DNA from: an uncultured Gammaproteobacteria bacterium
GTDB taxonomy: Bacteria; Patescibacteriota; Microgenomatia; Levybacterales; GWA1-39-11
Assembly: GCA_964531275.1 (NCBI GenBank)
Contig: CAZHDZ010000001.1
Span: 10,556 to 66,881, forward strand
Direction of reading: 5' to 3'
Length of the DNA stretch: 56,326 bases
The translations under genes were made by a program, and so were the position numbers. The notes beneath the pieces were generated by a model, which was given only the letters and a program-made list of their open reading frames with translations, was not told where the DNA came from and did not search any database. Of the stretch, positions 7,545 to 55,903 are shown piece by piece. Each line of letters starts with the position of its first letter. Positions within the stretch are counted from its first letter, which is position 1.

Positions 7545-8435
7545 ATGCATATATTTCATTTTTTTGTTCCTCACAAAAAAAATAATCATAGAGCCGCTCT
7601 CCTTCATAATCTAACTTTAGTAATCTTAATACTGACAGTAACGCTTACGAGTTCACTTGCGGTGCTTATTCATAAAACTCATCCTGAAGTGCTTGGGGTT
7701 AGCTATCAAATTACCGATCGTGAGCTCCTTAATCTTACTAATTTTGAAAGAGCACAAGTTGGTCTACCACCATTGAGTCTGAATAGTAAGCTTACGGAAG
7801 CGGCCAAAAAGAAGGGCAATCATATGATTAAAAACGATTACTGGGCGCATTTTGCACCAGATGGTACATCCCCATGGGATTTTATTAAAGGAGAAGGCTA
7901 CGACTATACCTATGCGGGTGAAAATTTAGCAAAAGGATATACAACTTCATTTGGGGCCATGAAGGGGTGGATGGAGTCACCAACGCATAAAGCAAATATC
8001 TTATCAAAGCAATATTCAGAAGTAGGTTTTGCGATAGTACAAGGACGTTTGACGGGAGAAGATACGGTTCTCGTGGTCCAGGAGCTGGGTTCTACTGATA
8101 ATCTTGCAGGATCTGATAAAGGAACGCTTGATGGCTCAAATATTGTAAGTGGAAGTGTGCCGCAGGTGAACGGGTCATATCAGGTGAGTTTGCCTCAGGG
8201 CAATTTAGGCCAGGAACAAGGAGTAATAAGTACTCCTGTCATAGATATTTCACTTATAGCAAAAGTTTTGACGTTTCTATTACTGTCAGCACTGCTTATT
8301 GCACTTATATTGGACTTCATAATAATAGAAAAGAAGAAGATTCCACGAAAAGTCGGGAACAATCTAGATCATTTAATTTTGGTAACTGTATTTATAGTAT
8401 TCGTTGTAATGGCGAAATTAGGTCATGTAATATAA
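7545..8435 (+). CDS. CAP/SCP (YkwD-like) domain protein with N- and C-terminal TM segments
   Basis: NFERAQVGLPPL...YWAHFAPDG...GENLAKGY...SPTHKANIL...EVGFA. Confidence 0.7.
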   Translation: MHIFHFFVPHKKNNHRAALLHNLTLVILILTVTLTSSLAVLIHKTHPEVLGVSYQITDRELLNLTNFERAQVGLPPLSLNSKLTEAAKKKGNHMIKNDYWAHFAPDGTSPWDFIKGEGYDYTYAGENLAKGYTTSFGAMKGWMESPTHKANILSKQYSEVGFAIVQGRLTGEDTVLVVQELGSTDNLAGSDKGTLDGSNIVSGSVPQVNGSYQVSLPQGNLGQEQGVISTPVIDISLIAKVLTFLLLSALLIALILDFIIIEKKKIPRKVGNNLDHLILVTVFIVFVVMAKLGHVI

Positions 8436-8436
8436 T
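8431..8436 (+). promoter_or_regulatory. -10 box TATAAT, 7 nt upstream of ATG 8444
   Basis: Read directly; no SD between. Confidence 0.35.
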
Positions 8437-8443
8437 TTGAATC

Positions 8444-8701
8444 ATGTGTAAAAATCACACTATTCTTTATTTTTTTGAATTTGCACTTATTGGCGGAGGG
8501 TTTGCATTCCTACTTGCTGTTAAGCTTTCCCTCTATACGCAGTCGTGGATTTTGGCTCTGATACTGCTTTCATATATTGTTTTGGGATTAGTGCACCATG
8601 GGAAAGATCATGATATAACTACACATGTTGTGTTAGAATATATTTTGGTAAGCGTGCTGATATTTGCACTATTTGTATTCTTGAATATAGTAAGAATTTA
8701 A
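8444..8701 (+). CDS. Small hydrophobic membrane protein (3 TM), unknown function
   Basis: Hydrophobic throughout; codon-plausible ORF between neighbouring genes. Confidence 0.5.
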   Translation: MCKNHTILYFFEFALIGGGFAFLLAVKLSLYTQSWILALILLSYIVLGLVHHGKDHDITTHVVLEYILVSVLIFALFVFLNIVRI

Positions 8702-8702
8702 T

Positions 8703-9443
8703 ATGAAGGGAATGATTTTAGCGGGGGGAATGGCCACTAGGTTACGACCTCTTACTCTTGTTACCAATAAGCATCTACTACCGGTTTATAACAAGCCGAT
8801 GATTTATTATCCAATTGAGGCACTAAAAAATGCAGGGGTTAGAGAGGTGCTTATTTCAACATCTGCGGATCATGCAGGTGAATTCGCAAATTTGCTCGGA
8901 TCAGGTGAAGAGTTTGGGCTTAGATTCTATTATGCAGTTCAAAAGAATGCCAAGGGAGGAATAGCCGACGCAATAACCCTATCTAAAGAATTTGTAGGTA
9001 AAGAAAAACTTTTGGTTATTTTAGGTGACAATATTTTTGGCCATGATTTGCATGATTCAGTAAAAAGTTTTGAGGAAAAACTAACTGGTGCACGGATTTT
9101 CGGGGTAAAAATGCCTACAGAATCAAAGCAATATGGAGTAATTGAGCTAGGTGAAAATGGACAAGTTCTATCGATTGAAGAGAAACCAGAAAATCCAAAG
9201 TCGGATATAGCGCAGACAGGAATTTACATGTATGACAATAGGGTTTTTGATTTTATTTCTCAGCTTTCACCATCAGCTAGGGACGAGCTTGAGGTAACCG
9301 ATCTTAATAATTTTTATGTTAAAGAAGGGTCGATGGAGTGTGAAATAATTGATTGGTGGATTGATGCAGGAACTTCGCATGACGAACTATTAAAAGCAGG
9401 CACAATGGTAAAAGAGATGGTTGCAAAAAATGCGTTAACCTAG
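8703..9443 (+). CDS. rmlA: Sugar-1-phosphate nucleotidyltransferase (glucose-1-phosphate thymidylyltransferase, short form)
   Basis: MILAGGMATRLRPLTLVTNKHLLPVYNKPMIYYPIE and the GDNIF motif. Confidence 0.75.
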   Translation: MKGMILAGGMATRLRPLTLVTNKHLLPVYNKPMIYYPIEALKNAGVREVLISTSADHAGEFANLLGSGEEFGLRFYYAVQKNAKGGIADAITLSKEFVGKEKLLVILGDNIFGHDLHDSVKSFEEKLTGARIFGVKMPTESKQYGVIELGENGQVLSIEEKPENPKSDIAQTGIYMYDNRVFDFISQLSPSARDELEVTDLNNFYVKEGSMECEIIDWWIDAGTSHDELLKAGTMVKEMVAKNALT

Positions 9444-9449
9444 TATAAA
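9444..9449 (+). promoter_or_regulatory. -10-like TATAAA, exactly 6 nt upstream of ATG 9456
   Basis: Read directly. The gene could also be co-transcribed with rmlA. Confidence 0.3.
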
Positions 9450-9455
9450 TTCTAT

Positions 9456-9896
9456 ATGCCACTCGCAACTACAGAACCAGCAAAAAAAGTCCAGACGAAA
9501 GATCATCAAGGTGAGGGTAATGGATTTTTAATCGAACTTTTTAAAGATAAAGAAACAAATGGAAAGACAGAGGTATACCTAACCGCTGCAATCCCAGGTG
9601 CATTTAAGGGTTATCATCTTCATAGAGTGCGTGCCGCTCGGTACGTTGCTATTAAGGGCAAAATGAAAATCACCCTTTATTCTCCTGGAAATCCAGATTC
9701 AAAAGAAGAGCACATACTCGACTCAGAAAATCCCTCAAGACTATTTATTCCAAAAGATATCGCAACCGGACTTGAGAATATCGGTGATGAAGAGGCATGG
9801 TTGGTAAATTATCCCGATCCAGCTTATGACCCATCCTTAACAGACGAACAGGTAGAATACACTGAGGAAGAACTTCTTCAAGGAGTAGTTAAATAG
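9456..9896 (+). CDS. Cupin-fold nucleotide-sugar epimerase/isomerase (RmlC/FdtA-like)
   Basis: FKGYHLHRVRAARYVAIKGKMKITL...WLVNYPDPAYDP. Cannot be assigned to 3,5-epimerase versus 3,4-ketoisomerase by eye. Confidence 0.5.
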   Translation: MPLATTEPAKKVQTKDHQGEGNGFLIELFKDKETNGKTEVYLTAAIPGAFKGYHLHRVRAARYVAIKGKMKITLYSPGNPDSKEEHILDSENPSRLFIPKDIATGLENIGDEEAWLVNYPDPAYDPSLTDEQVEYTEEELLQGVVK

Positions 9897-10809: not shown

Positions 10810-10818
10810 TGATATACT
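10810..10818 (+). promoter_or_regulatory. Extended -10 TGaTATACT, exactly 6 nt upstream of ATG 10825 (predicted leaderless)
   Basis: Read directly; no SD. Confidence 0.55.
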
Positions 10819-10824
10819 ACTCAC

Positions 10825-11385
10825 ATGGCAGAAGGAGAAAATAGTCAGACAGTTCCACTCAATATTGTTTTACGCCCTGATTCTACAGTGGCTAACTGGG
10901 CTATGACATATAGCTACCGAGTGACGAGGCATTTTCCGGCAGAATTTAATTTAGATACAGATTTATATAAAGCTCATTTGTCATTGGTCCATGGAGAGTA
11001 TTCTCCCGAAGCGATACCGAAGCTCACTATGTTGCTTGAGGGTATAGCCGCTGAGACTGAGCCATTTCAGGTTGAAGTAGATCAATTTGTTGTTTCACCA
11101 AAAGATTTTTTACACTGGAAGGCAACTCAAAGCAAGGATCTTATGATTCTTCAAAGGCGGGTACTTGAAGCTGCATCTTCCGCGGGAACTATAATAGACC
11201 AAGGTGAGTACAATCCCCACATCACATTAACGAAATTAAAAGATCCTAGTACTGTAAAACCTGTTTTGGCAAGTCTAGGAAAGGGTGATCTTAAATTATT
11301 TCAAGCAGACTCAATGGCGGTAATGGATTTGGGTTCTTATGGGACTGTATCAACATTAAGGGTAGACATCCCATTTTTGCTTTAA
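10825..11385 (+). CDS. 2H phosphoesterase (LigT / 2',5'-RNA ligase-like)
   Basis: Two HxS/T motifs: AHLSLV and PHITLT. Confidence 0.65.
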   Translation: MAEGENSQTVPLNIVLRPDSTVANWAMTYSYRVTRHFPAEFNLDTDLYKAHLSLVHGEYSPEAIPKLTMLLEGIAAETEPFQVEVDQFVVSPKDFLHWKATQSKDLMILQRRVLEAASSAGTIIDQGEYNPHITLTKLKDPSTVKPVLASLGKGDLKLFQADSMAVMDLGSYGTVSTLRVDIPFLL

Positions 11386-12503: not shown

Positions 12504-12512
12504 TGCTATATT
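12504..12512 (+). promoter_or_regulatory. Extended -10 TGcTATATT, exactly 6 nt upstream of ATG 12519
   Basis: Read directly; no SD. Confidence 0.5.
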
Positions 12513-12518
12513 TAATGC

Positions 12519-13079
12519 ATGTCTAAGAAAAAAGAAAGTAAGACGACTCAAATTTTTTTGATTGCAGTAATTGCTCTAATTCTTGCAGGAGCAAGCTTTT
12601 TCTTTTTCGTAAAGCTTTCTGAGCAGCAAAAACTATCAAAAATAAATTCTTTTGATGAATGTCAAAGAGCCGGTTTTCCAATAATGGAAAGCTACCCCCC
12701 ACAATGTCGTGCAAACAACAAAACATTCACACAGGATATTGGAAATGAGTTGTCTTACTCCGATGAGATCCTAGTATCAAGTCCTCGCCCAAATCAGAAG
12801 ATATCTTCACCTATTACAATCGAGGGTAAAGCGCGAGGAACATGGTTCTTTGAGGGGACGATGAATGCTAAGCTTTATGATTCATCAAATAAGCATTTAG
12901 CTGATATTATTTTGACCGCAAGAGACGAATGGATGACTGAAAATTTTGTACCATTCTCCGGATCTGCTGAATTTTCTATACCAGAAAATCCAAAAGGTCG
13001 ACTTATTATTCACAATGATAATCCATCAGGACTGCCTGAAAATCAAAAAGAACTTGTTATCCCAGTTGTTTTTGAATAA
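12519..13079 (+). CDS. Membrane-anchored Gmad2 immunoglobulin-like domain protein
   Basis: N-terminal TM; SSPITIEGKARGTWFFEGTMNAKLYD...FSGSAEF. Confidence 0.55.
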   Translation: MSKKKESKTTQIFLIAVIALILAGASFFFFVKLSEQQKLSKINSFDECQRAGFPIMESYPPQCRANNKTFTQDIGNELSYSDEILVSSPRPNQKISSPITIEGKARGTWFFEGTMNAKLYDSSNKHLADIILTARDEWMTENFVPFSGSAEFSIPENPKGRLIIHNDNPSGLPENQKELVIPVVFE

Positions 13080-13087: not shown

Positions 13088-13096
13088 TGATATACT
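13088..13096 (+). promoter_or_regulatory. Extended -10 TGaTATACT, 10 nt upstream of ATG 13107
   Basis: Read directly; shares the ttttgatatactcac motif with sites near 10810 and 48458. Confidence 0.5.
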
Positions 13097-13106
13097 CACC
13101 ATACAC

Positions 13107-14120
13107 ATGGCAAAAGTTTTAGTTACCGGAGGTGCCGGATTTATAGGTTCTAACTTCGTTCTCTATTGGGTGAATCAGCATCCAGATGATACTGTTATTG
13201 TTTTTGACAAGCTTACGTATGCAGGAAATTTAGAAAATCTTGTCTCAATTGAAGGAAAGAAGAACTATCTTTTTGTTCAGGGAGATATTACCAATCCAGA
13301 CATGGTAGACAGTGTAATGAAGGGTGTTGACGTTGTTGTCCATTTTGCAGCCGAGTCACACGTGGATAGAAGTATTAAGACTCCAGCTGCATTCGTTCAG
13401 ACAAATGTAGTCGGAACTCAGGTCCTTCTTGATGCTGCTGTTAAGCATCAGGTAAAAAGATTTCATCACATATCAACAGATGAAGTATTTGGAGCCCTAA
13501 GTCTTGATACTACGGAAAGATTTAATGAGAATACTCCCTATGATCCTCATAGTCCATATTCAGCCAGTAAAGCCGGATCTGACCATCTGGTAAGAGCGTA
13601 TCACGATACATACGGGCTACCAATATCAATAACTAATTGTGCTAATAATTACGGACCATTTCACTTTCCAGAAAAATTAATACCTCTTGCAATAACGAAT
13701 TTACTTGAAGGGAAAAAAGTTCCCGTGTATGGAGACGGTAAATATGTAAGAGATTGGTTGTATGTTGAAGATCATGTCAGAGCTATAGAGCTTGTTTTGG
13801 AAAAAGGAAAAATAGGTGAGACTTATTGCGTTGGGAGTATGACTCAAGATGTAAATAACTTAGAAGTTGTAAGAAAAATTTTAGCTATTATGGGGAAAGA
13901 TGATTCAGAAATTGAATTTGTAAAAGACAGGCCTGGACATGATAGAAGATATGCAATTGATTGGTCAAAAATTCAAAGAGAGCTTGGCTGGAAACCATTG
14001 AACGATTTTGATACCTGGCTTGAAAAAACAATTGCATGGTATAAAGATAATGAGAAGTGGTGGAGGGATATTAAATCAGGAGACTACAAAAATTACTACA
14101 GCGAGCAGTACAATAAATAG
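13107..14120 (+). CDS. rmlB: dTDP-glucose 4,6-dehydratase
   Basis: VTGGAGFIGSNF, HFAAESHVDRS, YSASKAGSDHL and GDGKYVRDWLYVEDH. Confidence 0.9.
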   Translation: MAKVLVTGGAGFIGSNFVLYWVNQHPDDTVIVFDKLTYAGNLENLVSIEGKKNYLFVQGDITNPDMVDSVMKGVDVVVHFAAESHVDRSIKTPAAFVQTNVVGTQVLLDAAVKHQVKRFHHISTDEVFGALSLDTTERFNENTPYDPHSPYSASKAGSDHLVRAYHDTYGLPISITNCANNYGPFHFPEKLIPLAITNLLEGKKVPVYGDGKYVRDWLYVEDHVRAIELVLEKGKIGETYCVGSMTQDVNNLEVVRKILAIMGKDDSEIEFVKDRPGHDRRYAIDWSKIQRELGWKPLNDFDTWLEKTIAWYKDNEKWWRDIKSGDYKNYYSEQYNK

Positions 14121-14190: not shown

Positions 14191-14196
14191 TATAAA
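14191..14196 (+). promoter_or_regulatory. -10-like TATAAA, exactly 6 nt upstream of ATG 14203
   Basis: Read directly; no SD. Confidence 0.4.
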
Positions 14197-14202
14197 ACAT
14201 AA

Positions 14203-15123
14203 ATGAAAATTATACTAACCGGTGCTACCGGACTAATCGGATCAAGATTTGAGGAGCTCCTTTTTGAGAAGCATGAAATTATTCCCCTCTCTTCCTCAAA
14301 GGGTGTTGATATAACGGATAGAGAGTCTCTTGACCACTTTCTAAAAGATAAATCTTACGATGCAATTGTTCACCTGGCAGCAAAGACAGACGTAGATGGG
14401 TCTGAGCTCGATCGAGAACATGACCTTACGTTGCTGGGAATAGGGGAAGATGAATTAATTGATCTGGACATTAATTCCATCGACGTTGAAAAATGGAAAG
14501 GGAGTAAAACCGCTGTTGGAATAAATGCGATTGGGACAAAAAATCTTAAGAATCTAGCATATGAAGCAGGTGCTAAATTTATCTATATATCTACAGACTT
14601 TGTTTTTTCGGGCAAAGAAAATGAGAACACTGAAGAGTCAAAGCCCAGTCCAGTTGACTGGTATGGTATGAGCAAATACCTTGGAGAGCGTACTATTGAT
14701 CAATCAACGGATCTAATCACGAGAATATCCTTTCCCTACGGACATCTTAGTCCTGTCAAGAAAGACTTTGTTTGGCGACTCCATGACCTGATTTCTTCCC
14801 GAGATGAGGTCTCACTGATTTCTGACCAAATCATTACACCAACTTTTATTGATGATGTTGTAATGGGAATAGATTTCCTATTGGAAAGTGATCAAAAGGG
14901 CGTAATCCACTTGGCTGGTTCAAGTTATCATACACCTAAGGAAATAGCTGAAATGATCAAGCAACAATTTGGCCTCTCAACAACAATTGGTGAATCTAAA
15001 TTAGCCGATGTATATGCAGGTAAAGCGCCTCGCCCCTTCCATTCAATCATGAAAAATGATAAGCTCAAGACCCTTGGATTTATACCGAAAACCTTCAGCC
15101 AGGGCTTAGAATTGATTAAATAA
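14203..15123 (+). CDS. rmlD: SDR-family dTDP-4-dehydrorhamnose reductase-like protein, with a ~30-aa insertion
   Basis: ILTGATGLIGS, HLAAKTDVD, YGMSKYLGE. The insertion reads DREHDLTLLGIGEDELIDLDINSIDVEKW. Confidence 0.55.
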   Translation: MKIILTGATGLIGSRFEELLFEKHEIIPLSSSKGVDITDRESLDHFLKDKSYDAIVHLAAKTDVDGSELDREHDLTLLGIGEDELIDLDINSIDVEKWKGSKTAVGINAIGTKNLKNLAYEAGAKFIYISTDFVFSGKENENTEESKPSPVDWYGMSKYLGERTIDQSTDLITRISFPYGHLSPVKKDFVWRLHDLISSRDEVSLISDQIITPTFIDDVVMGIDFLLESDQKGVIHLAGSSYHTPKEIAEMIKQQFGLSTTIGESKLADVYAGKAPRPFHSIMKNDKLKTLGFIPKTFSQGLELIK

Positions 15124-15182
15124 TATAGTATAATCATTATGAGTCTAAGGTGTTGCCTTGGAAGCAGTCTACAATTTTATTT

Positions 15183-16481
15183 ATGAAAATCACATTTATT
15201 GGACACGGATATGTTGGCCTAGTTTCTGCATCAATATTTGCAGATTTAGGTAATGACGTAACCGTAATTGGACATACCCCAGAAACTGTTGAGAACCTAA
15301 ATAAGGGCAATGTCCACATCTACGAACCTGGCCTTACAGAGCTAGCTCAGAAAAATATTGCCGCTGGACGTCTTAGATTTACTCTTGATTACGATTCGGT
15401 AAAGGATGCGGATATAGTATTTACCGCAGTTGGGACTCCTCCTAAAGAGACAGGTGAGGCGGATCTATCTACGGTACTTGCAGTTGTTGAAAAAATTGCA
15501 AAACACCTATCGGGGTATACCGTTGTTGTAACCAAAAGCACAGTGCCAATAGGTACTAATAAAAAAGTAAAAGAGCTGATTCTTAGCGTTAAAGATGACA
15601 AGGCAGAATTTGATGTAGCCTCTTGTCCAGAATTTTTAAGACAAGGGTCGGCTATTGCTGATACTCTCAACCCGGACAGAATTGTTATTGGAACCGAGAC
15701 AAAAAGAGCCCAAGATTTATTGATAGAGCTGCATAAGCCATTGCAAGAAAATACAAATTGTCCTTATGTTCTAACTAACCTAGAAACAGCAGAGATGATT
15801 AAGTATGCTGCTAACTCTTTCTTGGCAATGAAAATTTCATTTGCAAATTCTATAGCTCAACTGTCTGAAGTGACTGGAGCTGATGCATTGAAAGCACTAG
15901 AGGGTATAGGCTTTGATAAGAGAATTGGAAATTACTTTCTGCAACCTGGCCCCGGATATGGGGGAAGTTGTTTCCCTAAAGATGTAAAAGCTTTAATATC
16001 AATTGCAAAAGACTATAATTTTGATTTCGAGTTATTAAAGGAAGTTGAAAACGTAAATGATTCAGCAAAACGCTCGATTGTTAAGAAAGCTGAAAACTTA
16101 CTTGGTGATCTAACCGGAAAAAGAATTGGCGTTTTGGGTCTTGCTTTCAAGCCAAATACTGATGATATGAGATACGCTCCGTCTATCGAAATCATAGATT
16201 GGTTGAAAGAAAGAGGAGCTAGTATTATTGCCTATGATCCTCAATCAATGGAAAAAGCAAAGAAGATAATTTCAGACATAACATTTACGGAAGATATGTA
16301 TGAAGTTGCCAAGGATGCAGATCTATTGATGATAATCACAGACTGGAACGAATTTAAAGAGATGGATCTAGATAAGGTAAAGGAACTCTTAAAAAGCCCG
16401 AATATAATTGATGCACGAAATATTTATGACCCGGAAAAAATGAAAGATGCCGGTTTTACCTATCTCGGAGTAGGACGGTAA
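15183..16481 (+). CDS. ugd: UDP-glucose 6-dehydrogenase
   Basis: MKITFIGHGYVGLV...GGSCFPKD...GLAFKPNTDDMR. The ORF-track GTG 15150 start was rejected in favour of ATG 15183. Confidence 0.85.
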   Translation: MKITFIGHGYVGLVSASIFADLGNDVTVIGHTPETVENLNKGNVHIYEPGLTELAQKNIAAGRLRFTLDYDSVKDADIVFTAVGTPPKETGEADLSTVLAVVEKIAKHLSGYTVVVTKSTVPIGTNKKVKELILSVKDDKAEFDVASCPEFLRQGSAIADTLNPDRIVIGTETKRAQDLLIELHKPLQENTNCPYVLTNLETAEMIKYAANSFLAMKISFANSIAQLSEVTGADALKALEGIGFDKRIGNYFLQPGPGYGGSCFPKDVKALISIAKDYNFDFELLKEVENVNDSAKRSIVKKAENLLGDLTGKRIGVLGLAFKPNTDDMRYAPSIEIIDWLKERGASIIAYDPQSMEKAKKIISDITFTEDMYEVAKDADLLMIITDWNEFKEMDLDKVKELLKSPNIIDARNIYDPEKMKDAGFTYLGVGR

Positions 16482-17467: not shown

Positions 17468-18466
<999 letters not shown>

Positions 18467-18501: not shown

Positions 18502-18510
18502 TGTTACAAT
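18502..18510 (+). promoter_or_regulatory. Extended -10 TGtTACAAT, 9 nt upstream of ATG 18520
   Basis: Read directly. Confidence 0.4.
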
Positions 18511-18519
18511 AAAATTCCT

Positions 18520-24785: not shown

Positions 24786-24814
24786 TTGAATGTTCTTCTT
24801 CTGTAGTATAATAT
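24786..24814 (+). promoter_or_regulatory. Candidate promoter TTGAAT-N17-TAATAT, 16 nt upstream of ATG 24831
   Basis: Read directly. Confidence 0.4.
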
Positions 24815-39792: not shown

Positions 39793-39798
39793 GAACTC

Positions 39799-39804
39799 AT
39801 ATTA
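39799..39804 (-). promoter_or_regulatory. -10 TAATAT (minus strand), exactly 6 nt upstream of ATG 39792
   Basis: Reverse complement of 39793-39804 reads taatatgagttc, followed by atg. Confidence 0.45.
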
Positions 39805-39823
39805 CTTTTAGCATGCTTATATG

Positions 39824-41260: not shown

Positions 41261-41318
41261 CCTGCCTGAATTTATTCATTATATCAAAGTTGAATAGCTT
41301 TCTATATAATGGATATTC

Positions 41319-45121: not shown

Positions 45122-45127
45122 ACTGTT

Positions 45128-45136
45128 AGTATACCA
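45128..45136 (-). promoter_or_regulatory. Extended -10 TGgTATACT (minus strand), exactly 6 nt upstream of the msrB ATG 45121
   Basis: Reverse complement of 45122-45136 reads tggtatactaacagt, followed by atg. Confidence 0.55.
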
Positions 45137-45232
45137 AACGCTTATTACATGTCTCTTTCACTTTTCTTAATTAGTTCAGACGTCAGCATCCTATGATTTG
45201 ATAATTAATATGCAGAAAAGAGGTGATTCCAA

Positions 45233-45541
45233 TTGAATAAAAAAACACAAAAAGTTAACCCCGTTCTAAGTGCTGCTGCTGGCGCAGTGGTCGGTGCTGG
45301 ACTGGGCATGGCTGCTGGAGCTGCTGCAAACGATGCCAAGACAAGAAAACAAGTTGAGAACGTTGTTAAGACTGTCAAAAAGCAAGCAGAGGGCTACATA
45401 AAATCTATCGACACGAAAAAAAGTATGGAAGAAGTAGAACAAGTAGCTAGGGATGCTATTGCGAAAGCAAGCAAAAATAAAAAAGCTGCATCAGTAGTTA
45501 AAAAGGTGCAAGGTTCTACCAAGAAGGCAAATCATAAATAA
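45233..45541 (+). CDS. Small Lys/Ala-rich protein with a Gly/Ala-rich N-terminal segment (YtxH-like?). TTG start with an SD.
   Basis: agaggtga lies 6 nt upstream of TTG 45233; LSAAAGAVVGAGLGMAAGAAA. Confidence 0.4.
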   Translation: MNKKTQKVNPVLSAAAGAVVGAGLGMAAGAAANDAKTRKQVENVVKTVKKQAEGYIKSIDTKKSMEEVEQVARDAIAKASKNKKAASVVKKVQGSTKKANHK

Positions 45542-45814: not shown

Positions 45815-45843
45815 TTGACATAGGACGTATTGAGGAATAATAT
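45815..45843 (+). promoter_or_regulatory. Near-consensus promoter TTGACA-N17-TAATAT, 6 nt upstream of ATG 45850 (predicted leaderless)
   Basis: Read directly. The intervening ctcctc has no SD. Confidence 0.6.
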
Positions 45844-45849
45844 CTCCTC

Positions 45850-46803
45850 ATGGTTAATATAGAATGTGGATTTCAGCAGACACCTCAGCCTAATATATAT
45901 GGAGTAGAGGCAAAATTCCCTACACCTGAGCAAATGACAGCAAATCATGAGAGGTTGCTTGTTATGCTTTCTGGGCAAAGAAATAAAGATGGAAGTGCTG
46001 CGAATACTCCCGAATTTCTTGCAGGATTTTTTGGATACTCTGTTGACCATGTAAATAGTCTTATAGCAGAGGCAGTGAATCCGACTCTCAGAGAAGTTCC
46101 GATCCTTACGCCAACGATTTCCTCAACAGCTGAATTACAATCTGTTGGCCGATCTCTTTCCACAGTAGAAGTGTCCTTGTCAGAATTGCCCGCACAAGTG
46201 GTAGTAGCAGGCGGCGCTACAGAAAAAGCTAAGAAAGAAAAAGAGCTTGTGCCTGGGGAAAGGGCATATTTTATGGGGATGGCGAAAGGAAAATATCTTG
46301 GAAAAAGAGGGTCAAGATATGGGGTAGAAAATATAACCGTAAGATCAGACACAGAGAATGAGGAGGTTAGAAATTTTCTTGAGCAAACCTACGGTATTCA
46401 TGGAGAAACAACTTCAACTTCTCATAGGGTGGAATTTTTTCTCCCAAGCCCACAATTTGATTTTTTGCTAGATCCTAATCCGTCAATAAGTATGTTGGAG
46501 AACGCTTGGAGATTTGCCCCCTTCTTGCTTGGAGTGATGCATTCAAAGGGTGTTGATAAAGACGGTAGGCTTGTTCATCCAGATGAAGATTTACTAAGAA
46601 CAATTGAGACATTTTACAGTTTGCATTTTGATAAGCCGATCGGAGAAGTGCAACAAAACAAAAGGACGCAAAAGCGTTCACCCTTTTTGAAGATAAAAGA
46701 TATAGAGGGAGTATATAGCACATTATATGGAGTCCCTTCTGTGCAGCAAATTCCGTTTGTTGAAAAGTTACCGGGATACCCGCAAGAGGCTAATCAGAAA
46801 TAA
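45850..46803 (+). CDS. Orphan 317-aa protein; possible degenerate LAGLIDADG-like repeats (speculative)
   Basis: FLAGFFGYS, AYFMGMAKGKYLG...ITVRSDTENEEVRNFLEQTYGI, and FLLGVMHSKGV...DEDLLRTIETFYSL. Confidence 0.45.
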   Translation: MVNIECGFQQTPQPNIYGVEAKFPTPEQMTANHERLLVMLSGQRNKDGSAANTPEFLAGFFGYSVDHVNSLIAEAVNPTLREVPILTPTISSTAELQSVGRSLSTVEVSLSELPAQVVVAGGATEKAKKEKELVPGERAYFMGMAKGKYLGKRGSRYGVENITVRSDTENEEVRNFLEQTYGIHGETTSTSHRVEFFLPSPQFDFLLDPNPSISMLENAWRFAPFLLGVMHSKGVDKDGRLVHPDEDLLRTIETFYSLHFDKPIGEVQQNKRTQKRSPFLKIKDIEGVYSTLYGVPSVQQIPFVEKLPGYPQEANQK

Positions 46804-47368
46804 TTTTTGTAATCTTTATATTTTCCAATTGTTCTTTTGAATTCCTGATAGATTTTCTATACGCACTTCCTGAAACAACTTTCGTGTAATCCGAAACTTT
46901 TTGGATAAATTCAATTCCGTCCAAATGATCCACCTCATGCTGGATAACTCTTGCAAGAAGACCATTGCAATTTAGAGAAAAGATTTTCCCATTTTCATCA
47001 CATGCTTCAACTGTTATTTCAGAAGATCGTAAGACTGGTCCAAATAATTCGCCTTCAGCGACACTACCGCACCCTTCATATATAGATACTCTTTCTTTTG
47101 ACGATTTCGTAATAGTAGGATTTATAAAGACTCTAAAGATATCTTCTTTAAATAATTTTCTTGATTTTGTATTACGAGGATGTGTTATAAAAATTTGGAA
47201 ATTCTTTCCAATTTGCGTGGCAGCGATTCCTACGAGGCCAGTGTCATACATAGTGTCTTTCAGATCTTTGATCACCTTTTTAATTACTGGCGAAGAAAAG
47301 TCTCTGACTTTAAGGTTTTTTGCACGTAATGCTTTATCTCCGACCTGCGTAAGTTTTTTGATAGCCAT
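46790..47368 (-). CDS. def: Peptide deformylase
   Basis: GIAATQIG, EGCGS and HEVDHLDG. Confidence 0.9.
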   Translation of the reverse strand: MAIKKLTQVGDKALRAKNLKVRDFSSPVIKKVIKDLKDTMYDTGLVGIAATQIGKNFQIFITHPRNTKSRKLFKEDIFRVFINPTITKSSKERVSIYEGCGSVAEGELFGPVLRSSEITVEACDENGKIFSLNCNGLLARVIQHEVDHLDGIEFIQKVSDYTKVVSGSAYRKSIRNSKEQLENIKITKIISD

Positions 47369-47375
47369 ACAACGA

Positions 47376-47384
47376 ATTATATCA
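47376..47384 (-). promoter_or_regulatory. Extended -10 TGaTATAAT (minus strand), 7 nt upstream of the def ATG 47368
   Basis: Reverse complement of 47369-47384 reads tgatataattcgttgt, followed by atg. Confidence 0.5.
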
Positions 47385-47645: not shown

Positions 47646-48392
47646 TTACAGAATGAATTTCTCTATTACATCAGCTGCTCCGTTATCTTCGACGGATGGT
47701 GCTATATAATCAGCAAGTTCTTTTAATTCCGGTGCTGCATTACCCATCGCAACTTTTAATCCACATGCAGAAAGGAGGGGGAAGTCGTTATAGCTGTCTC
47801 CTACACCAATTATTTCTGAAGGTTGAATATTAAGCAATTTTGCAACTTCAATTATGCCATGTTGTTTGGTTGCCTCAGGGTGAGTAGCCATTACCCAACT
47901 AGAATTCTTCTCGTAACCGGCAGCTAATCTGATATCAACATTAGATATTTTGGATAATTTTAGAGCAAACTGTTCTGCTTTACTTTGTCGGAGTGCTGTC
48001 GTGGAAAAAACTGCAAATGGTTTTGCGTATTCTAAGGAGTCATCGAATGGTATAAGCTCGCCATCACTATCTACAGTAATAACAGCACCATCTTCATGTG
48101 CAATCTTTTGGATTTCATTTATGGTATCAGCAGAAAGCACTCTCTCATAGTATGGTATATGAGACCTTGAGTTAATTACCTGCGCACCACCACTAACAAT
48201 TGATGGACTATTGAGAGGAACAGTTTTAAAAATGCTCTCAATCTCCCTCCTGCTTCTTGAAGTTGCTATTCCCACATGTATAATTTTTTCAGCTTTTGTT
48301 ATGGTATCAATTACTTTTTGAGTAACCTGCAAATCATCAGATATTGTAAGTGTTCTGTCAACATCAAAAATAATTGCTTTGTATTTTGTCAT
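47646..48392 (-). CDS. HAD-superfamily hydrolase, Cof-type (IIB)
   Basis: IIFDVDRTL and GDSYNDFPLL. Confidence 0.8.
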   Translation of the reverse strand: MTKYKAIIFDVDRTLTISDDLQVTQKVIDTITKAEKIIHVGIATSRSRREIESIFKTVPLNSPSIVSGGAQVINSRSHIPYYERVLSADTINEIQKIAHEDGAVITVDSDGELIPFDDSLEYAKPFAVFSTTALRQSKAEQFALKLSKISNVDIRLAAGYEKNSSWVMATHPEATKQHGIIEVAKLLNIQPSEIIGVGDSYNDFPLLSACGLKVAMGNAAPELKELADYIAPSVEDNGAADVIEKFIL

Positions 48393-48399
48393 TGGCTAA

Positions 48400-48408
48400 A
48401 TTATACCA
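48400..48408 (-). promoter_or_regulatory. Extended -10 TGgTATAAT (minus strand), 7 nt upstream of ATG 48392
   Basis: Reverse complement of 48393-48408 reads tggtataatttagcca, followed by atg. Confidence 0.5.
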
Positions 48409-48457: not shown

Positions 48458-48466
48458 TGATATACT
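48458..48466 (+). promoter_or_regulatory. Extended -10 TGaTATACT, exactly 6 nt upstream of ATG 48473
   Basis: Read directly; no SD. Confidence 0.55.
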
Positions 48467-48472
48467 CACTTC

Positions 48473-49096
48473 ATGAAGTTGTTTCTTGCATCAGAAGCAA
48501 AAAATCCTCAGACAATTAAAAAACTGGATTCATATGTTGGCGGACTACGAGATAAGAGAATTGCATATATTCCGACCGCTGCGAATGGAGAGGCTTGGGG
48601 ATCTTGGAGGGATGGAGGCTCTTGGAATTTAGCCCAAACTCTAAATGCCCAAATAACATTACTTCAATTAGAGGACTCTTCACTCGAAGTAACCAGAGAG
48701 AAACTTCAACATCAAGACATTATTTGGGTGGCGGGTGGCCTTTGTGGTTACTTAATGTATTGGATGAGGAGAAGGAAGATGGATGTTGTGTTGCCTCAAA
48801 TTTTAGATGGCGGGACTTTATATGTTGGCTCTAGTGCAGGAAGTATGGTAACGTCAAAAACCCTGGACATCTCAGAATGGTATCCATCAGATCAAGAGTA
48901 CGGTGCACATTTTATTCCTGGGCTAGGGTTAGTGGATTTTGATATATACCCACATTTTGAAGAAGGACAACAGGAAGATATAAAAAGTTGGTATAGGGGT
49001 AAGAAATTGTATATGTTAAAAAATGGGGAAGAAATCATTGTTGAAGATAAAAAAGTCATTGTTGTCGGAGAAGAAAGATTACTTGTGAACGGCTGA
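48473..49096 (+). CDS. Peptidase S51 (dipeptidase E-like) family protein
   Basis: IAYIPTAANGE... and GSSAGSMV (nucleophile Ser context). Confidence 0.65.
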   Translation: MKLFLASEAKNPQTIKKLDSYVGGLRDKRIAYIPTAANGEAWGSWRDGGSWNLAQTLNAQITLLQLEDSSLEVTREKLQHQDIIWVAGGLCGYLMYWMRRRKMDVVLPQILDGGTLYVGSSAGSMVTSKTLDISEWYPSDQEYGAHFIPGLGLVDFDIYPHFEEGQQEDIKSWYRGKKLYMLKNGEEIIVEDKKVIVVGEERLLVNG

Positions 49097-49257
49097 AAGT
49101 GCTTTCTTTTTGCGTAAGGAATAAGAACATATTTTTGTATTAAAATTTGAAAGACATAAGTGCCTTCTTTCTTCCTCGAAATAAGAACTCTCATTGAATA
49201 TGAAGTTTGCTAAAGGAATTATGTTAAGAGTACTAAATCATGTAAAATACCGATATC

Positions 49258-49458
49258 ATGAATCAACATGTTAGTAATTGTGTTCAGGATTATCGCAACA
49301 AGAACAAGGTTACCCAGGAGGAACTTGGGAGAGCTGTAGGTGTTACTCGCCAGACTATTATTGCAATAGAAAAAGGAAATTATACTCCGTCAGTACTGCT
49401 TGCTCTAAAAATTGCAAAGTATTTTAATACTACAGTTGAGAAATTGTTTGTGATGTAG
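49258..49458 (+). CDS. Small XRE-family HTH transcriptional regulator (66 aa)
   Basis: [40 protein letters not shown]. Confidence 0.8.
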
Positions 49459-49937: not shown

Positions 49938-49969
49938 GAATCTATAAAGATCGGAGGTGAATTAAATAG

Positions 49970-50530
49970 ATGAAAAATCCAATAATAATAGTTGCCATTA
50001 TTGTAGTTATAGCACTCGTTGGCTTAGGTGCATATGCTTTCTCTCAAAATTCTTCAAAGTCTCAATCGATGATGAAAGATGATGCAATGATGAAAGAAGA
50101 GACATCCATGGAGCCAAAAGATGCAATGATGAAAAAAGATGAAATGGCTATGGAAGGTGACAAGATGATGGATGATGGAAAAGACTCTTCTGCTAATAAA
50201 ATGGCGGATTCTCGATACATCCAGTACAGCAAGTCAGCTCTTGATAGCGCTTCAGACTCTCGTCGAGTGCTATTCTTCTATGCATCTTGGTGTCCGACAT
50301 GTAGACCTGCTGACCAAAACTTTACTCAGAATATAGATAAAATTCCTGAAGATGTAACGCTCATTCGGGTTAACTACAATGATCCAGACACAGATCAAGA
50401 AGAGAAAGATTTGGCGAAGAAATATACCGTCACATATCAGCATACATTTGTGCAGATTGATGGTACGGGAAAAGAAATAACGAAATGGAATGGAGGTCAA
50501 ATGGACGAACTGCTTTCTAATATTAAGTAA
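49970..50530 (+). CDS. Membrane-anchored thioredoxin-fold protein with a Met-rich N-terminal region
   Basis: N-terminal TM. 12 Met in about 50 residues (DAMMKEE / DAMMKKD repeat). WCPTC active site. Confidence 0.75.
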   Translation: MKNPIIIVAIIVVIALVGLGAYAFSQNSSKSQSMMKDDAMMKEETSMEPKDAMMKKDEMAMEGDKMMDDGKDSSANKMADSRYIQYSKSALDSASDSRRVLFFYASWCPTCRPADQNFTQNIDKIPEDVTLIRVNYNDPDTDQEEKDLAKKYTVTYQHTFVQIDGTGKEITKWNGGQMDELLSNIK

Positions 50531-51252: not shown

Positions 51253-51729
51253 TTATACGGTTAAATCATTCTCTGATTTGATGTCTACAGCATTTTGAAG
51301 AAGTCTTTGAAATACAGCAGCAGCTGTTGCTATGACAGAAGCAGCAAAAACTGCAAGAATTCCAAGCATGGTAGGTCCTGCAGGATCATCACCCTGTGCG
51401 AAGAAGCGGATGAAAATCATTGCCAATGCAATAAAGCCAATAAGACTTAGAGCGGCAAGCTTCATATTCTTAAGCTTATTTACAGCGCTTTGAGAAAAGG
51501 CTTTATTCGCATCAATTAAATTAAGTAACTTAAATGCCTGATAGAGTCCAACAAAAAATGGAATAGATGCTACATAGCTATAGATGATAAGTGGATCAGA
51601 ATAAATTCCGAGTAGATCAAGATTTGCAGCTCTCCCTTCGGTAGAAGGGAGCCAAATTAAGCCAACGGCTGCGCCGACAGCGATAAGGATTAATACAAAT
51701 TTTAAGAATAAAGTCGATTTAACTTTCAT
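51253..51729 (-). CDS. DUF2975-like 4-TM membrane protein
   Basis: Topology plus the ANKAFSQSAVNKLKNMKLAAL segment; typical partner of HTH_26 regulators. Confidence 0.45.
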   Translation of the reverse strand: MKVKSTLFLKFVLILIAVGAAVGLIWLPSTEGRAANLDLLGIYSDPLIIYSYVASIPFFVGLYQAFKLLNLIDANKAFSQSAVNKLKNMKLAALSLIGFIALAMIFIRFFAQGDDPAGPTMLGILAVFAASVIATAAAVFQRLLQNAVDIKSENDLTV

Positions 51730-51811
51730 AACTTAAATACATTATAACTATCCATTTATCGTTTGTCAATATATTATTATTGCTTAATGATATATATCTG
51801 GTATCCTATAA

Positions 51812-51840
51812 TTGGTTTTCACCTCAAGTTGTTATATAAT
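51812..51840 (+). promoter_or_regulatory. Promoter TTGGTT-N17-TATAAT, exactly 6 nt upstream of ATG 51847 (predicted leaderless)
   Basis: Read directly. Confidence 0.55.
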
Positions 51841-51846
51841 TTCCAA

Positions 51847-52542
51847 ATGTCTTTATCAGAAGTATCTATACCAGCTGAGGGTGGGCAAGAATGGTCGATG
51901 GAAAGTGCTATCGAAAGAATTGCTAATCTGCAAGGTAAAAAAGTTGATTTGGCAGGGGTCGGCATAACTCCTCACCACTTACATTTCGGTGACTTTGGTG
52001 ATTTAAGTCAGCGACCAATAGAACTAAGACCGCATATTGAAAAAGCACTTTTTGATAGCCAAGCTGCTGATGCCAAATTAGCATTAGCTGAGGAATACGA
52101 TCGATATATAGACTCACTTGGTGTGCCTGGTCAGTCAATGGTTAGGGGTATGAGAGCGAATTATGCCGAAGACATTTATCCCGATGCAGGTTTGGGAAAC
52201 TTGGAAGCCATAGCCAAGAATTTCAGAATGGCAGATTTTCTAATTCAATTTCAAATGAGGGAAGATGTAAAGGCTTTGATACCCAACTACTATCATCCAA
52301 CAACACCTGGGTTCTTTATAAACGGTACAAGAGTGGAGGGGGAAGGTTCTTTTTTGATTGACCTCGAAACTTCAAATGGCAGTATCAGAACTCATGAGGA
52401 ACTTCGAGAGTTTGTTTATACCTGTATTCCTTGGCATCGTGATTACGAAAGCTTAGGAATCTCAAATAAAATTGATGCATACTATTTGCCACAAGAGCAC
52501 CGCGCGGTAGTCAGCGCACTAGAGGCTTCTGTAATTGTATAA
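51847..52542 (+). CDS. Orphan soluble protein A (231 aa)
   Basis: MSLSEVSIPAEGGQEW... The ORF-track TTG 51763 start would add a hydrophobic, AT-driven extension that overlaps the promoter. Confidence 0.5.
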   Translation: MSLSEVSIPAEGGQEWSMESAIERIANLQGKKVDLAGVGITPHHLHFGDFGDLSQRPIELRPHIEKALFDSQAADAKLALAEEYDRYIDSLGVPGQSMVRGMRANYAEDIYPDAGLGNLEAIAKNFRMADFLIQFQMREDVKALIPNYYHPTTPGFFINGTRVEGEGSFLIDLETSNGSIRTHEELREFVYTCIPWHRDYESLGISNKIDAYYLPQEHRAVVSALEASVIV

Positions 52543-52549
52543 TTATTCC

Positions 52550-53416
52550 ATGGATCACCCGGAGGTTTCTATAGGCATGCCCAATGTTGATTCTGGAATG
52601 CAAATTCCATTAGAGCTTGCGGCTCACGTAACACCCACAAAAATTGCTGAGAACTTTTCAAACTACCCGGAAATGCAACAGATTCTTTCTCCGGAGCAAC
52701 AAAGAAGAGTAGGCTTAATTAAAGGAACTCTTTCTCAAATTCCTCTAATTCATGGTACTGGACATGATCTAGACGGTTTAGACATTTTGCCAATTGGTGA
52801 CTTGCCGGAAGGACACAGGGGGAGAACTCACGGGCTAGATAGAAGTTTAGGATTGCACAAATACACTTTTTTTAATTGGGGACTCCCGGAAAAAACAAGT
52901 GGAAGTACTATCATGTTAGTAAATCCCGAAATATTAAATAGTCCAAACACACTAGTTACAGGGTTTGATATTGGTGAGATACGAATGGTAGATGACACTC
53001 CGTATGATGATGTGAAGGATGATGTTAAAGAGTCATATCAAAGAGAATATTTTGACAAGGTGGTAACTGGCACACAGTGGGTTGAAATTGTTGCAAGAAG
53101 AGTACTTGCTGACGTTGAAGCAGGAAAGCCTTTTTATTCGTTGTGGAGTAAGGGAGCACTTGGTGAGATCAAGCATTTAGGGAAAGTAGATAAGGGTGCA
53201 ATTTTAGGGAAAATAACTGCAGATGATTTTAAGTCTTATTATAAATTCCTGTATGAGCATGGTTTTTCTTTTTCAAACATTGAGCATTATCGAGAGTTAG
53301 AAAAGAGAACGGGTGTTTGGCAGGGTGTAGATCCAACGCCAGAAGAATGTGGCATTGACTACGACGATGCAGCAAAGTATTGGCAAAGATTATTTGCGCA
53401 AGAATCCCTTTCTTGA
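52550..53416 (+). CDS. Orphan soluble protein B (288 aa)
   Basis: ATG 52550 lies 7 nt after the stop of protein A. No recognisable family. Confidence 0.5.
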   Translation: MDHPEVSIGMPNVDSGMQIPLELAAHVTPTKIAENFSNYPEMQQILSPEQQRRVGLIKGTLSQIPLIHGTGHDLDGLDILPIGDLPEGHRGRTHGLDRSLGLHKYTFFNWGLPEKTSGSTIMLVNPEILNSPNTLVTGFDIGEIRMVDDTPYDDVKDDVKESYQREYFDKVVTGTQWVEIVARRVLADVEAGKPFYSLWSKGALGEIKHLGKVDKGAILGKITADDFKSYYKFLYEHGFSFSNIEHYRELEKRTGVWQGVDPTPEECGIDYDDAAKYWQRLFAQESLS

Positions 53417-54637: not shown

Positions 54638-54896
54638 AGTTCTCGATAAATGATAGAAGATTGGAGCTTATGATAGCTACTTTTTTACTTGCGAGAGAGT
54701 AGAACATTTCTTTTCCTTCCTTTCTAGCACTAACAAGTTGGGCAGATCTTAGCTTTTCTAAGTGTTGTGAGACTGCAGATTGGGAAAGTCCGCAATTGCC
54801 GATAAGTTGGCTAACATTTTTCTCGCTTTCTGACAAACAAACAAGTAGTTTGAGTCGTGTATGGTTGGCGAGTGATGAAAGAATGTTTTGTTCCAC
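54621..54896 (-). CDS. ArsR/SmtB-family transcriptional regulator (GTG start)
   Basis: LANHTRLKLLVCLSESEKNVSQLIGNCGLSQSAVSQHLEKLRSAQLV. Confidence 0.85.
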   Translation of the reverse strand: MEQNILSSLANHTRLKLLVCLSESEKNVSQLIGNCGLSQSAVSQHLEKLRSAQLVSARKEGKEMFYSLASKKVAIISSNLLSFIENYESKG

Positions 54897-54901
54897 AATT
54901 T

Positions 54902-54925
54902 ATATATTAGCATACTCTAATATAT
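54902..54925. promoter_or_regulatory. Perfect 9-6-9 inverted repeat, atatattag-catact-ctaatatat; candidate ArsR operator
   Basis: Read directly. It lies between and over the -35 and -10 of the arsR promoter. Confidence 0.55.
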
Positions 54926-54931
54926 TGTCAA
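54904..54931 (-). promoter_or_regulatory. Minus-strand promoter TTGACA-N16-TAATAT, 7 nt upstream of the arsR GTG 54896
   Basis: Reverse complement of 54897-54931 reads ttgacaatatattagagtatgctaatatataaatt. Confidence 0.55.
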
Positions 54932-55045
54932 TAAGTCTCTTCGTGTTCTTGATCTAGTAAGTATTCATGCTTTCATGTATGAATGAATCAATTATGTAGC
55001 AACGTAATGCTTAGAAGAGTTATGTTGTTATAAAGATAGTTGCGC

Positions 55046-55051
55046 TATACT
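55046..55051 (+). promoter_or_regulatory. -10 TATACT, exactly 6 nt upstream of ATG 55058
   Basis: Read directly. Confidence 0.45.
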
Positions 55052-55057
55052 TACTTT

Positions 55058-55903
55058 ATGAGTTGGTTTGTCCTTATTTTACTAAGTACTTTTATTGTCT
55101 CTTTTGCCAATATCTTGCAGAAGTCCTTAATGAAGGATGATAAGAGTGATCCTATTTCCTATTCAATAATATTTGCCTTTTTGCTAGGAATAATAAATTT
55201 CATAATTGCTCTATTCTTCGGATTTCATTTTCCTGCAATAAGTCTAAATCTTATTTTCTTTCCAATTGCTGCAATTCTTTGGGGACTTGGGACTGTGCTT
55301 TTTTTCAAAGCTCTACAATTATTAGAATCATCAGAAGTTACAATTCTTGCATCAGTTAGATCTTTGGTCACCATTACAGCCGCACTTCTTTTTCTTGGTG
55401 AAACTTTCAGCATTCAAAAACTTTTTGGGACGATTATAATTTTAGTCTCAATATTCATTGTTACAAATTTAAAGGGTGGAATTAAATTCAACAAAGGAAT
55501 CTATTACACATTTGGAATGGCCTTCTGTTACGGATTGGCCATTGCCTGTGATGTTGTAAATCTTCGGTCAACCGACCCGCTTTCATATTTGGCCGTAATA
55601 AATATTCTGATTGGAATTATATTGTTGCTGATTTTTCCCAAGGCAATAACAAAAATGAAAGTTCTTAAGAGCAAAAGCTTTCTTAAGAAAATGTTAGCTA
55701 TAAGTGTGTTCACTTCTGCACAAGCAATTGCGTATTACTTCGCTTTGGCAAAAGGTCCAGCATCTCAAATCGCTCCAATCGGCCAGTCTCAAGTCATATT
55801 AACAATTTTACTTGCAGCAATTATTCTGAAGGAGCGTGATAATCTGCTGCGCAAGGTGTTCGCTGCAATTTTAGTAATGATTGGAGTACTTCTTCTAAGA
55901 TAG
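55058..55903 (+). CDS. EamA/DMT-family transporter
   Basis: 10-TM two-repeat architecture. ATG 55058 is preferred over the ORF-track TTG 55040. Confidence 0.8.
   Translation: MSWFVLILLSTFIVSFANILQKSLMKDDKSDPISYSIIFAFLLGIINFIIALFFGFHFPAISLNLIFFPIAAILWGLGTVLFFKALQLLESSEVTILASVRSLVTITAALLFLGETFSIQKLFGTIIILVSIFIVTNLKGGIKFNKGIYYTFGMAFCYGLAIACDVVNLRSTDPLSYLAVINILIGIILLLIFPKAITKMKVLKSKSFLKKMLAISVFTSAQAIAYYFALAKGPASQIAPIGQSQVILTILLAAIILKERDNLLRKVFAAILVMIGVLLLR

Follow-up and report, generated by a model that had tools for sequence, protein, structure and literature searches.

The DNA analysed here is a 56-kb stretch of contig CAZHDZ010000001.1 (the window), in which an initial annotation had placed sigma-70-type -10 boxes at a fixed short distance upstream of many start codons and had proposed that the genes concerned are translated from leaderless or near-leaderless mRNAs. 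With a GC content of 38%, the window is extremely densely packed; of its ~73 genes, 24 to 28 are coupled, meaning that they overlap their neighbour or are separated from it by a gap of 5 nt or less. The gene names given initially hold for gltX (complete, 404 aa), def, msrB (SelR domain), yqeY and the arsR-family gene; aspS is of the non-discriminating type. The AspS protein shares 82% identity with a Candidatus Levybacteria protein and 91% with a JGI metagenome protein, and further named matches to it come from Daviesbacteria and Curtissbacteria. Matching genome contigs belong to Levyibacteriota, Daviesbacteria, Woesebacteria and other Patescibacteria, and the nearest genome is the metagenome-assembled genome (MAG) CAZEEU01 (AspS 92%, GltX 81% identity). 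By these similarities the window is assigned to the Candidate Phyla Radiation (CPR)/Patescibacteria, Microgenomates group, and is Levybacteria-like. Dozens of Levybacteria-like MAGs (loci L081-L133, and likewise CAZEEU01) are titled "uncultured Gammaproteobacteria", "Pseudomonadales" or "Saccharibacteria", a systematic labelling artefact.

Boxes are written below as hexamer-Nx-start, where x is the number of nucleotides between the hexamer and the start codon; genes are referred to by their start positions, with a minus sign for the reverse strand (all others are on the forward strand). All 22 hexamers listed in the initial annotation are present with the spacers given there (12 with N6, four with N7 and six with N8-10). 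A TGn extension and a spacer of six nucleotides are found upstream of the LigT-like gene 10825 (TGaTATACT-N6-ATG, 10810..10827; 8.0 bits with the position weight matrix, PWM), the Gmad2-domain gene 12519 (TGcTATATT-N6-ATG, 12504..12521; PWM 7.5 bits), yqeY (28622-; TGaTATAAT-N6-ATG, 28620..28637), msrB (45121-; TGgTATACT-N6-ATG, 45119..45136) and the peptidase S51 gene 48473 (TGaTATACT-N6-ATG, 48458..48475). The tRNA-binding-domain gene 39792- (39790..39827) and gene 45850 (45815..45852) both have TTGACA-N17-TAATAT-N6-ATG. The gltX gene (37018) has a moderate box, TAAAAT-N6-ATG (37006..37020), gene 51847 has TATAAT-N6-ATG (51835..51849) and the EamA transporter gene 55058 has TATACT-N6-ATG (55046..55060). 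The remaining two N6 cases, TATAAA-N6-ATG at 9444..9458 (gene 9456, right after an upstream TAG stop) and at 14191..14205 (rmlD, 14203), are weak, lack the invariant last T and are individually indistinguishable from chance.

Spacers of seven nucleotides occur at the 85-aa ORF 8444 (TATAAT-N7-ATG, 8431..8446), def (47368-; TGaTATAAT-N7-ATG, 47366..47384), the HAD hydrolase gene 48392- (TGgTATAAT-N7-ATG, 48390..48408), which is divergent from 48473, and the arsR-family gene 54896- (TTGACA-N16-TGcTAATAT-N7-GTG, 54894..54931). Longer spacers are present at the cutA-like gene 105 (TATAAT-N9-ATG, 90..107), rmlB (13107; TGaTATACT-N10-ATG, 13088..13109, with a predicted leader of ~3-4 nt), the epimerase gene 18520 (TGtTACAAT-N9-ATG, 18502..18522), aspS (33691; TGgTATGAT-N9-ATG, 33673..33693), the MFS transporter gene 41319 (TATAAT-N8-ATG, 41305..41321) and the gene for a 66-aa HTH protein, 49258 (TAAAAT-N9-ATG, 49243..49260). 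Correction of mechanically called starts by homology added three box cases that are absent from the initial annotation: gene 52550 (TATAAT-N6-ATG, 52538..52552), the UDP-glucose 6-dehydrogenase gene with start 15183 (TACAAT-N7-ATG, 15170..15185) and a GDP-mannose dehydratase-like gene with the probable start 17492 and a weak box (TATTAT-N8-ATG, 17478..17494). The TAA that ends the upstream gene (8433-8435 and 52540-52542, respectively) lies within the TATAAT hexamers 8431-8436 and 52538-52543, these bases being common to promoter and stop codon.

The frequency of such boxes was compared with chance using mechanical gene calling, in which ORFs were picked greedily by length and the first ATG, GTG or TTG of the ORF was taken as start. 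Every spacer was scored with an E. coli-type -10 matrix plus a bonus for TGn. Fourteen of the 73 mechanically called window starts have a strong -10 at N6-10, compared to ~0.6 expected from the 1881 other ATGs of the window. At N5-10, 13 of 76 window genes have one, whereas 200 shuffles of the upstream regions with dinucleotides preserved gave 1.5±1.2 and never more than 6, and a lax threshold yields 24 matches among the 76 genes where 9.2 are expected. About 15 of the window matches exceed chance, and some of the weak ones are noise.

The same analysis was extended to 80 loci of ~20 kb each around aspS, taken from GTDB species representatives (53 Levybacteria-like and 27 Parcubacteria/Saccharibacteria-like). 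The Levybacteria-like loci have 132 matches, their dinucleotide shuffles 13.6±3.3; the fixed phasing claimed initially thus beats chance in the relatives as in the window. Per 100 of their 973 genes, strong -10 boxes number 6.2 at N6, then 2.6, 2.3 and 2.5 at N7-9, 0.7 at N10, 0.2-0.7 at N0-5 and ~0.3 beyond, and the 474 genes of the Parcubacteria/Saccharibacteria-like loci have 9.1 per 100 at N6. The plot of box distance against starts, proposed as a check in the initial annotation, therefore has a sharp peak at N6 with a tail to N9-10 in the window and in the ~1450 genes of the related CPR loci, and is flat in the shuffles and, at N5-10, in control loci rich in Bacteroidota (499 genes), from Firmicutes (604 genes) and from other phyla (396 genes). 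A box at N5-10 was found in 10-24% of the mechanically called genes in every named CPR sub-lineage sampled. A matrix-free census of the hexamers at -12..-7 gave TATAAT 27 times (1.15 expected), TAAAAT 16 times (1.25), TATACT 12 times (1.15) and TACAAT 10 times (0.7). The spacer distribution rises abruptly at N6, and N5 and below are at background; such a hard lower edge is expected if the transcription start site (TSS) cannot be located downstream of the AUG.

To define the register, N6 cases were selected on the hexamer alone (n=126), and positions were numbered so that the A of ATG is +1. In this numbering the hexamer lies at -12..-7, and TG is present at -15/-14 in 73 of the 126 cases (58% versus 5% expected, P=1e-60). 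A T at exactly -35 and -34 is found in 56% and 44% of these cases, which is a modest enrichment of a -35 TTG. The elements sit in the canonical sigma-70 register, and both features of extended -10 promoters, the TG at -15/-14 and a weak or dispensable -35 at ~17 bp spacing, are found. The TGn extension is frequent in the window, as had been proposed: 11 of the 22 listed cases have it, where TG occurs at a frequency of 5.5% (P=5e-9). ATG makes up 87% of the box-positive starts and 67% of the box-negative ones. Among 143 box-positive starts of the Levybacteria-like loci, 125 are ATG, 15 GTG and three TTG, and in the window 12 of 13 are ATG.

Many of the boxes are conserved in relatives. In the closest relative (locus L114), yqeY has TGgTATAAT-N7 with diverged flanks, the boxes of gltX (TAAAAT-N6) and of the MFS transporter gene 41319 (TATAAT-N8) are identical, and for 39792- the -35 and -10 elements are kept while the sequence of the 17-bp spacer is replaced. 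In L161, the syntenic locus of the closest relative, msrB has TGaTATACT-N6 with diverged upstream sequence, gene 45850 has TTGACA-N17-TAACAT-N6, the box of the peptidase gene 48473 is conserved, and 55058 keeps TATACT-N6 in a different upstream context. The def box is also kept in L161, and in L162, where the protein has 59% amino acid identity, it is TGcTATAAT-N7 with unrelated flanks. A -10 at N5-11 is found in 31 of 50 upstream regions of aspS orthologues, and 21 have TTG(T/A)CA upstream. In ~21 of 50 Levybacteria relatives, the -35 position upstream of aspS (~-45 to -25; loci L085-L132) is occupied by a near-palindromic cTTGTCAAg, and in the window's own clade it is located 7 nt further upstream; this element may double as an operator.

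A TATAAT-like word in front of start codons could instead be an AT-rich, non-Shine-Dalgarno (SD) ribosome-binding site (RBS) or translation enhancer on leadered mRNAs, like that of the Bacteroidota "group B", and no promoter at all. The distance to the start codon would fit an RBS, another initiation signal is needed where SD sequences are hardly used, and many boxes lie between co-directional genes that are 8-27 nt apart. A ribosome-binding motif would, however, also precede internal genes, yet a box is found before only 4% of the coupled genes as opposed to 19-25% of genes that are divergent or have an upstream gap of 6-100 nt, which argues for a promoter. Furthermore, the TG at -15/-14 and the TTG at -35 are in exact sigma-70 register, TTGACA occurs in perfect form at a spacing of 16-17 bp in three window promoters (39792-, 45850 and 54896-; P=4e-6), the spacer distribution has its hard lower edge at N6, and the Bacteroidota-rich control shows no such peak. 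We therefore consider an RBS function of the word unlikely.

The phasing also depends on the start codons being assigned correctly. If translation began at a downstream in-frame start, the promoters would be real, the mRNAs would be leadered and the phasing would be a by-product of ORF calling. In favour of this are the mechanical calling of starts, the 56 N-terminal residues that precede the SelR domain of msrB, and several orphan ORFs without a domain that anchors the start. Pfam or NCBIfam domains begin at residues 1-7 in def (residue 3), yqeY (3), aspS, rmlB, the 18520 epimerase, the HAD hydrolase (4) and the S51 peptidase (7), which supports these start codons as correct, and N-termini align with those of orthologues from residue 1. 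Most boxed ATGs are the earliest start codon in their ORF, the starts 105, 51847 and 55058 being exceptions. For gene 52550, TTG 52535 of the window is replaced by a stop codon in L161, which keeps TATAAT-N6-ATG; for UDP-glucose 6-dehydrogenase, homology supports start 15183, where the Rossmann motif begins, and not GTG 15150. If ORF calling had produced the phasing, a peak at exactly N6 with a preference for ATG would not be expected, and the controls would show the phasing too. Misplaced starts as the source of the phasing are thus improbable, somewhat more so than an RBS. Chance is refuted in aggregate and applies only to few weak individual cases: at 38% GC ~9 lax-threshold matches are expected among 76 genes, two hexamers include an upstream stop (8444 and 52550), 9456 and 14203 are merely TATAAA, and upstream TAA or TAG stops do make TA-rich words before ATG, yet this artefact lies at spacer 0 (TANNNT 8.7%), separate from the N6 peak, and neither the excess over the shuffles nor the TGn enrichment nor the conservation in orthologues is accounted for.

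With curated starts, 21 genes have a strong box at N5-10 and eight a weaker one (including the two perfect -35 promoters with TAATAT), six have a -10 box at N11-28 and no SD, three have a clear SD, 24 are coupled and ten are unassigned. The N5-10 box is thereby present in 21 strong and eight weaker cases among ~48 non-coupled genes. The initial claim that it precedes most transcription-unit starts is slightly overstated, since about half of the non-coupled genes carry it; 6-10 bases before the start codon, it is found for about a third of all window genes. Leadered genes without SD include gene 24831 (TATAAT-N18-ATG, 24807..24833, identical in L114), gene 41260- (TGaTATAAT-N17-ATG, 41258..41286) and cca (31464-; TGaTATACT-N28-ATG, 31462..31501). 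The DUF2975 gene 51729- has TTGACA-N17-TATAAT-N11-ATG (51727..51769), a 12/12 promoter match with a predicted leader of ~5 nt. The genes cca and recJ are located back to back, and the probable start of recJ, ATG 31501, overlaps the TGn of the extended -10 of cca on the opposite strand; the mechanical recJ start GTG 31465 is probably wrong.

The rarity of SD sequences was noted correctly. The two cited counter-examples are present: the thioredoxin-like gene 49970 has a classical SD containing GGAGGTG (GGAGGTGA-N9-ATG, 49953..49972) and gene 45233 has GAGGTGA-N6-TTG (45220..45235), and both of these long SDs are conserved in L161. SD-like 4-mers are barely over background (15.8% vs 10.5%). In the Levybacteria-like loci they form a small peak at spacers 6-7 (3-4 per 100 genes versus a background of 1), the Parcubacteria-like set shows no SD peak, and Firmicutes have a strong one (7-14 per 100 genes at spacers 6-11). 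No rRNA is encoded in the window or in any of the 249 loci retrieved; the conserved GGAGGTGA and GAGGTGA sites imply that the anti-SD tail is probably intact. Loss of the anti-SD has been reported only in a subgroup of Parcubacteria (Tsurumaki et al., PMC9297842), which fits both the small peak of the Levybacteria-like loci and its lack in the Parcubacteria-like set.

The best explanation of the phased boxes is that they are extended -10 promoters which give rise to leaderless mRNAs or mRNAs with leaders of 1-4 nt; we put the probability of this reading at roughly 80%. RNA polymerase with the housekeeping sigma factor would bind TGnTATAAT, the -35 being weak or absent, and, judged from the register, transcription would start 7 nt past the last T of the hexamer, which is the A of AUG in the N6 cases; in the N8-10 cases it would start 1-4 nt upstream of that A. 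An mRNA made in this way, with AUG at its 5' end and no SD leader, would be bound through its terminal AUG by the ribosome together with initiator tRNA, as happens with leaderless mRNAs elsewhere. Downstream cistrons that overlap or follow after 5 nt or less would be translated by termination-reinitiation, and a minority of genes would have an SD or a short leader without one. Where promoters lie in gaps of 8-27 nt, in two cases (8444 and 52550) with bases in common with the upstream stop, nested transcription units would result in a genome that has no detectable intrinsic terminators. Roughly 45-60% of the non-coupled genes, including def, yqeY, msrB, gltX, aspS and rmlB, would then be leaderless or nearly so.

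Several observations weigh against this explanation. The N8-10 cases imply short leaders instead of none; the leaderless or near-leaderless mRNAs proposed initially are supported in silico, but this class would have leaders of 2-4 nt and not be strictly leaderless. Genes with boxes in short co-directional gaps or over an upstream stop must also be carried by read-through transcripts. A generic -35/-10 scan of 36.4-56.3 kb found 63 sites where shuffles gave 65.5, and terminator-like hairpins in the same region are at chance level (13 vs 13.4), so that the boundaries of transcription units are not independently defined; the promoter scan is uninformative because the enrichment exists solely in phase with start codons. 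The start 55058 is ambiguous, TTG 55040 being the alternative. Pyrimidine at -1 with purine at +1 was tried as an independent TSS signature and not relied on: in the Levybacteria-like loci a pyrimidine at -1 is found in 76% versus 65% (P=0.04, weak), and the difference is not significant elsewhere. The rmlB promoter shows no conservation among the CPR relatives compared, because the gene context varies.

Other features of the window were noted along the way. The RF2 gene (prfB) is located at 420-1427, and UGA is a stop codon here (genetic code 11). A frameshift or recoded stop in RF2 at 411-413 was ruled out, since 105-413 is the separate cutA-like gene and prfB begins at 420. At the window edge, a perfect 38-bp tandem repeat (1-93; 2.4 copies, 100% identity) reaches into the promoter of the cutA-like gene (TATAAT 90-95). 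Short tandem repeats are also found at 5831-5910, 49838-49894 and 50069-50146 (periods 30, 25 and 18), the first of them inside ORF 5366-6220, which has no NCBIfam match. A second strong box, TAGTATAAT (hexamer 15127-15132), precedes the UDP-glucose dehydrogenase start by 50 nt, and the TGA stop of an out-of-frame mini-ORF of 15 codons (ATG 15139) overlaps the ATG at 15183; this mini-ORF may be a leaderless upstream ORF or due to chance. The 190-bp gap before aspS contains a GC-rich hairpin followed by a T-run (33505-33535; aaaactccctcctagaagggagtttttt), among the few terminator-like structures seen, and the adjoining ORF 33147-33500 on the reverse strand may be spurious. A split GltX was ruled out, as the catalytic and anticodon-binding domains are both in the 404-aa protein; the ORF after gltX has only a sub-threshold PAP2 match (E=7e-4, under the Pfam cut-off). 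A look-up of the exact GltX protein sequence returned no recorded entry. The single tRNA-Gln is the only Rfam match within the window.

The adjacent genes 51847-52542 and 52550-53416 have similar N-termini (MSLSEVSI and MDHPEVSI), no Pfam match and a TATAAT-N6-ATG each, and are probably tandem paralogues. Genes 50718-51074, 51253-51729 (DUF2975), 51847-52542 and 53453-54896 (including the ArsR-family regulator) have no match in L161, where the homologue of 52550 directly abuts that of 55058; the HAD hydrolase gene 47646-48392 likewise has no match there. The genes without match (~50.7-55.0 kb and the HAD hydrolase) look like small strain-specific insertions.

Among known systems, the architecture is most readily compared with "group C" as defined by GeneMarkS-2, in which a Pribnow or TANNNT box is located 6-8 nt before the start of the first genes of operons (PMC6028130). 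Group C has been reported in 90% of Actinobacteria and 97% of Deinococcus-Thermus genomes, with Mycobacterium tuberculosis, Streptomyces and Deinococcus deserti as examples and an estimated 25-50% of transcription units being leaderless (PMC6028130). As in group C, the -10 box is phased to the starts of first genes, is rare before internal ones and is followed by ATG or GTG. Group C genomes with genetic code 11 are almost all of high GC (MetaGeneMark-2 preprint, 10.1101/2022.07.25.500264), whereas this lineage belongs to the Patescibacteria and has 38% GC. Instead of the bare TANNNT of group C, the full TATAAT with frequent TGn is found here, and SD sequences, which the group C model assigns to internal and leadered genes, are scarce even at such genes. 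In M. tuberculosis and D. deserti TSSs have been mapped experimentally, while here they are predicted from the sequence. The low-GC, code-4 Mycoplasma/Mollicutes, with leaderless mRNAs predicted to make up 30-60% of transcripts, also fall into group C (10.1101/2022.07.25.500264); they share with the window a small, AT-rich, reduced genome and a promoter box that adjoins the start codon, but belong to another phylum, whereas here UGA is a stop codon and RF2 is encoded.

Likeness to other systems is more partial. The Bacteroidota of group B (PMC6028130) resemble this lineage in that SD sequences are almost unused while an intact anti-SD tail is suggested; they differ in that a single AT-rich motif precedes every gene, internal genes included, and the mRNAs are leadered, whereas the motif here is promoter-shaped and avoids coupled genes. 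Extended -10 sigma-70 promoters of E. coli and Gram-positive bacteria likewise have a TG one base before the hexamer and a dispensable -35, but normally produce leadered mRNAs, while here the promoter is fused to the start codon. Archaea of group D (Haloferax, Sulfolobus) transcribe most first genes without a leader, likewise from a promoter at a fixed distance from the start; there, however, a TATA/BRE box at ~-26 is used by an archaeal RNA polymerase, and here it is a bacterial -10 at -12..-7. In full-text searches we found no paper that describes leaderless mRNAs for CPR, Patescibacteria, Microgenomates, Parcubacteria or Saccharibacteria. The sole CPR species with inferred TSSs, N. lyticus (RNA-seq coverage), was noted only for its variable distances between -10 and TSS. 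Our best reading is that the known leaderless architecture of group C would here be present in a new lineage that has low GC, code 11 and few SDs.

CPR bacteria make up a major, mostly uncultured share of bacterial diversity and are minimal cells with trimmed ribosomes. Whether leaderless, SD-independent initiation might be the dominant mode of expression across the whole CPR (Microgenomates, Parcubacteria and Saccharibacteria-like) is a claim that we hold in even balance, based on the recurrence of the N6 peak in every CPR sub-lineage sampled, as seen in only ~20 kb of each genome next to one or two marker genes. If it is true, the Patescibacteria would be the first large bacterial radiation with low GC and the standard code to have the group C architecture. 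They form a separate radiation with its own ribosome reductions, in which bS1 is shorter, bS21 and bL9 are lost and some Parcubacteria have lost the anti-SD (PMC9297842). The leaderless trait may have co-evolved with these reduced ribosomes. Gene prediction is affected as well, because RBS-based scoring of starts will misplace CPR gene starts, three of which were corrected in this window, and a TGnTATAAT-N6-ATG cassette should suffice for expression in Patescibacteria. Leaderless genes have no room for riboswitches or small RNA (sRNA) sites. Leaderless initiation is often seen as the ancestral mode, and the finding bears on the evolution of translation initiation. If it is confirmed, a large share of CPR genes would be expressed from mRNAs without a 5' leader or an SD.

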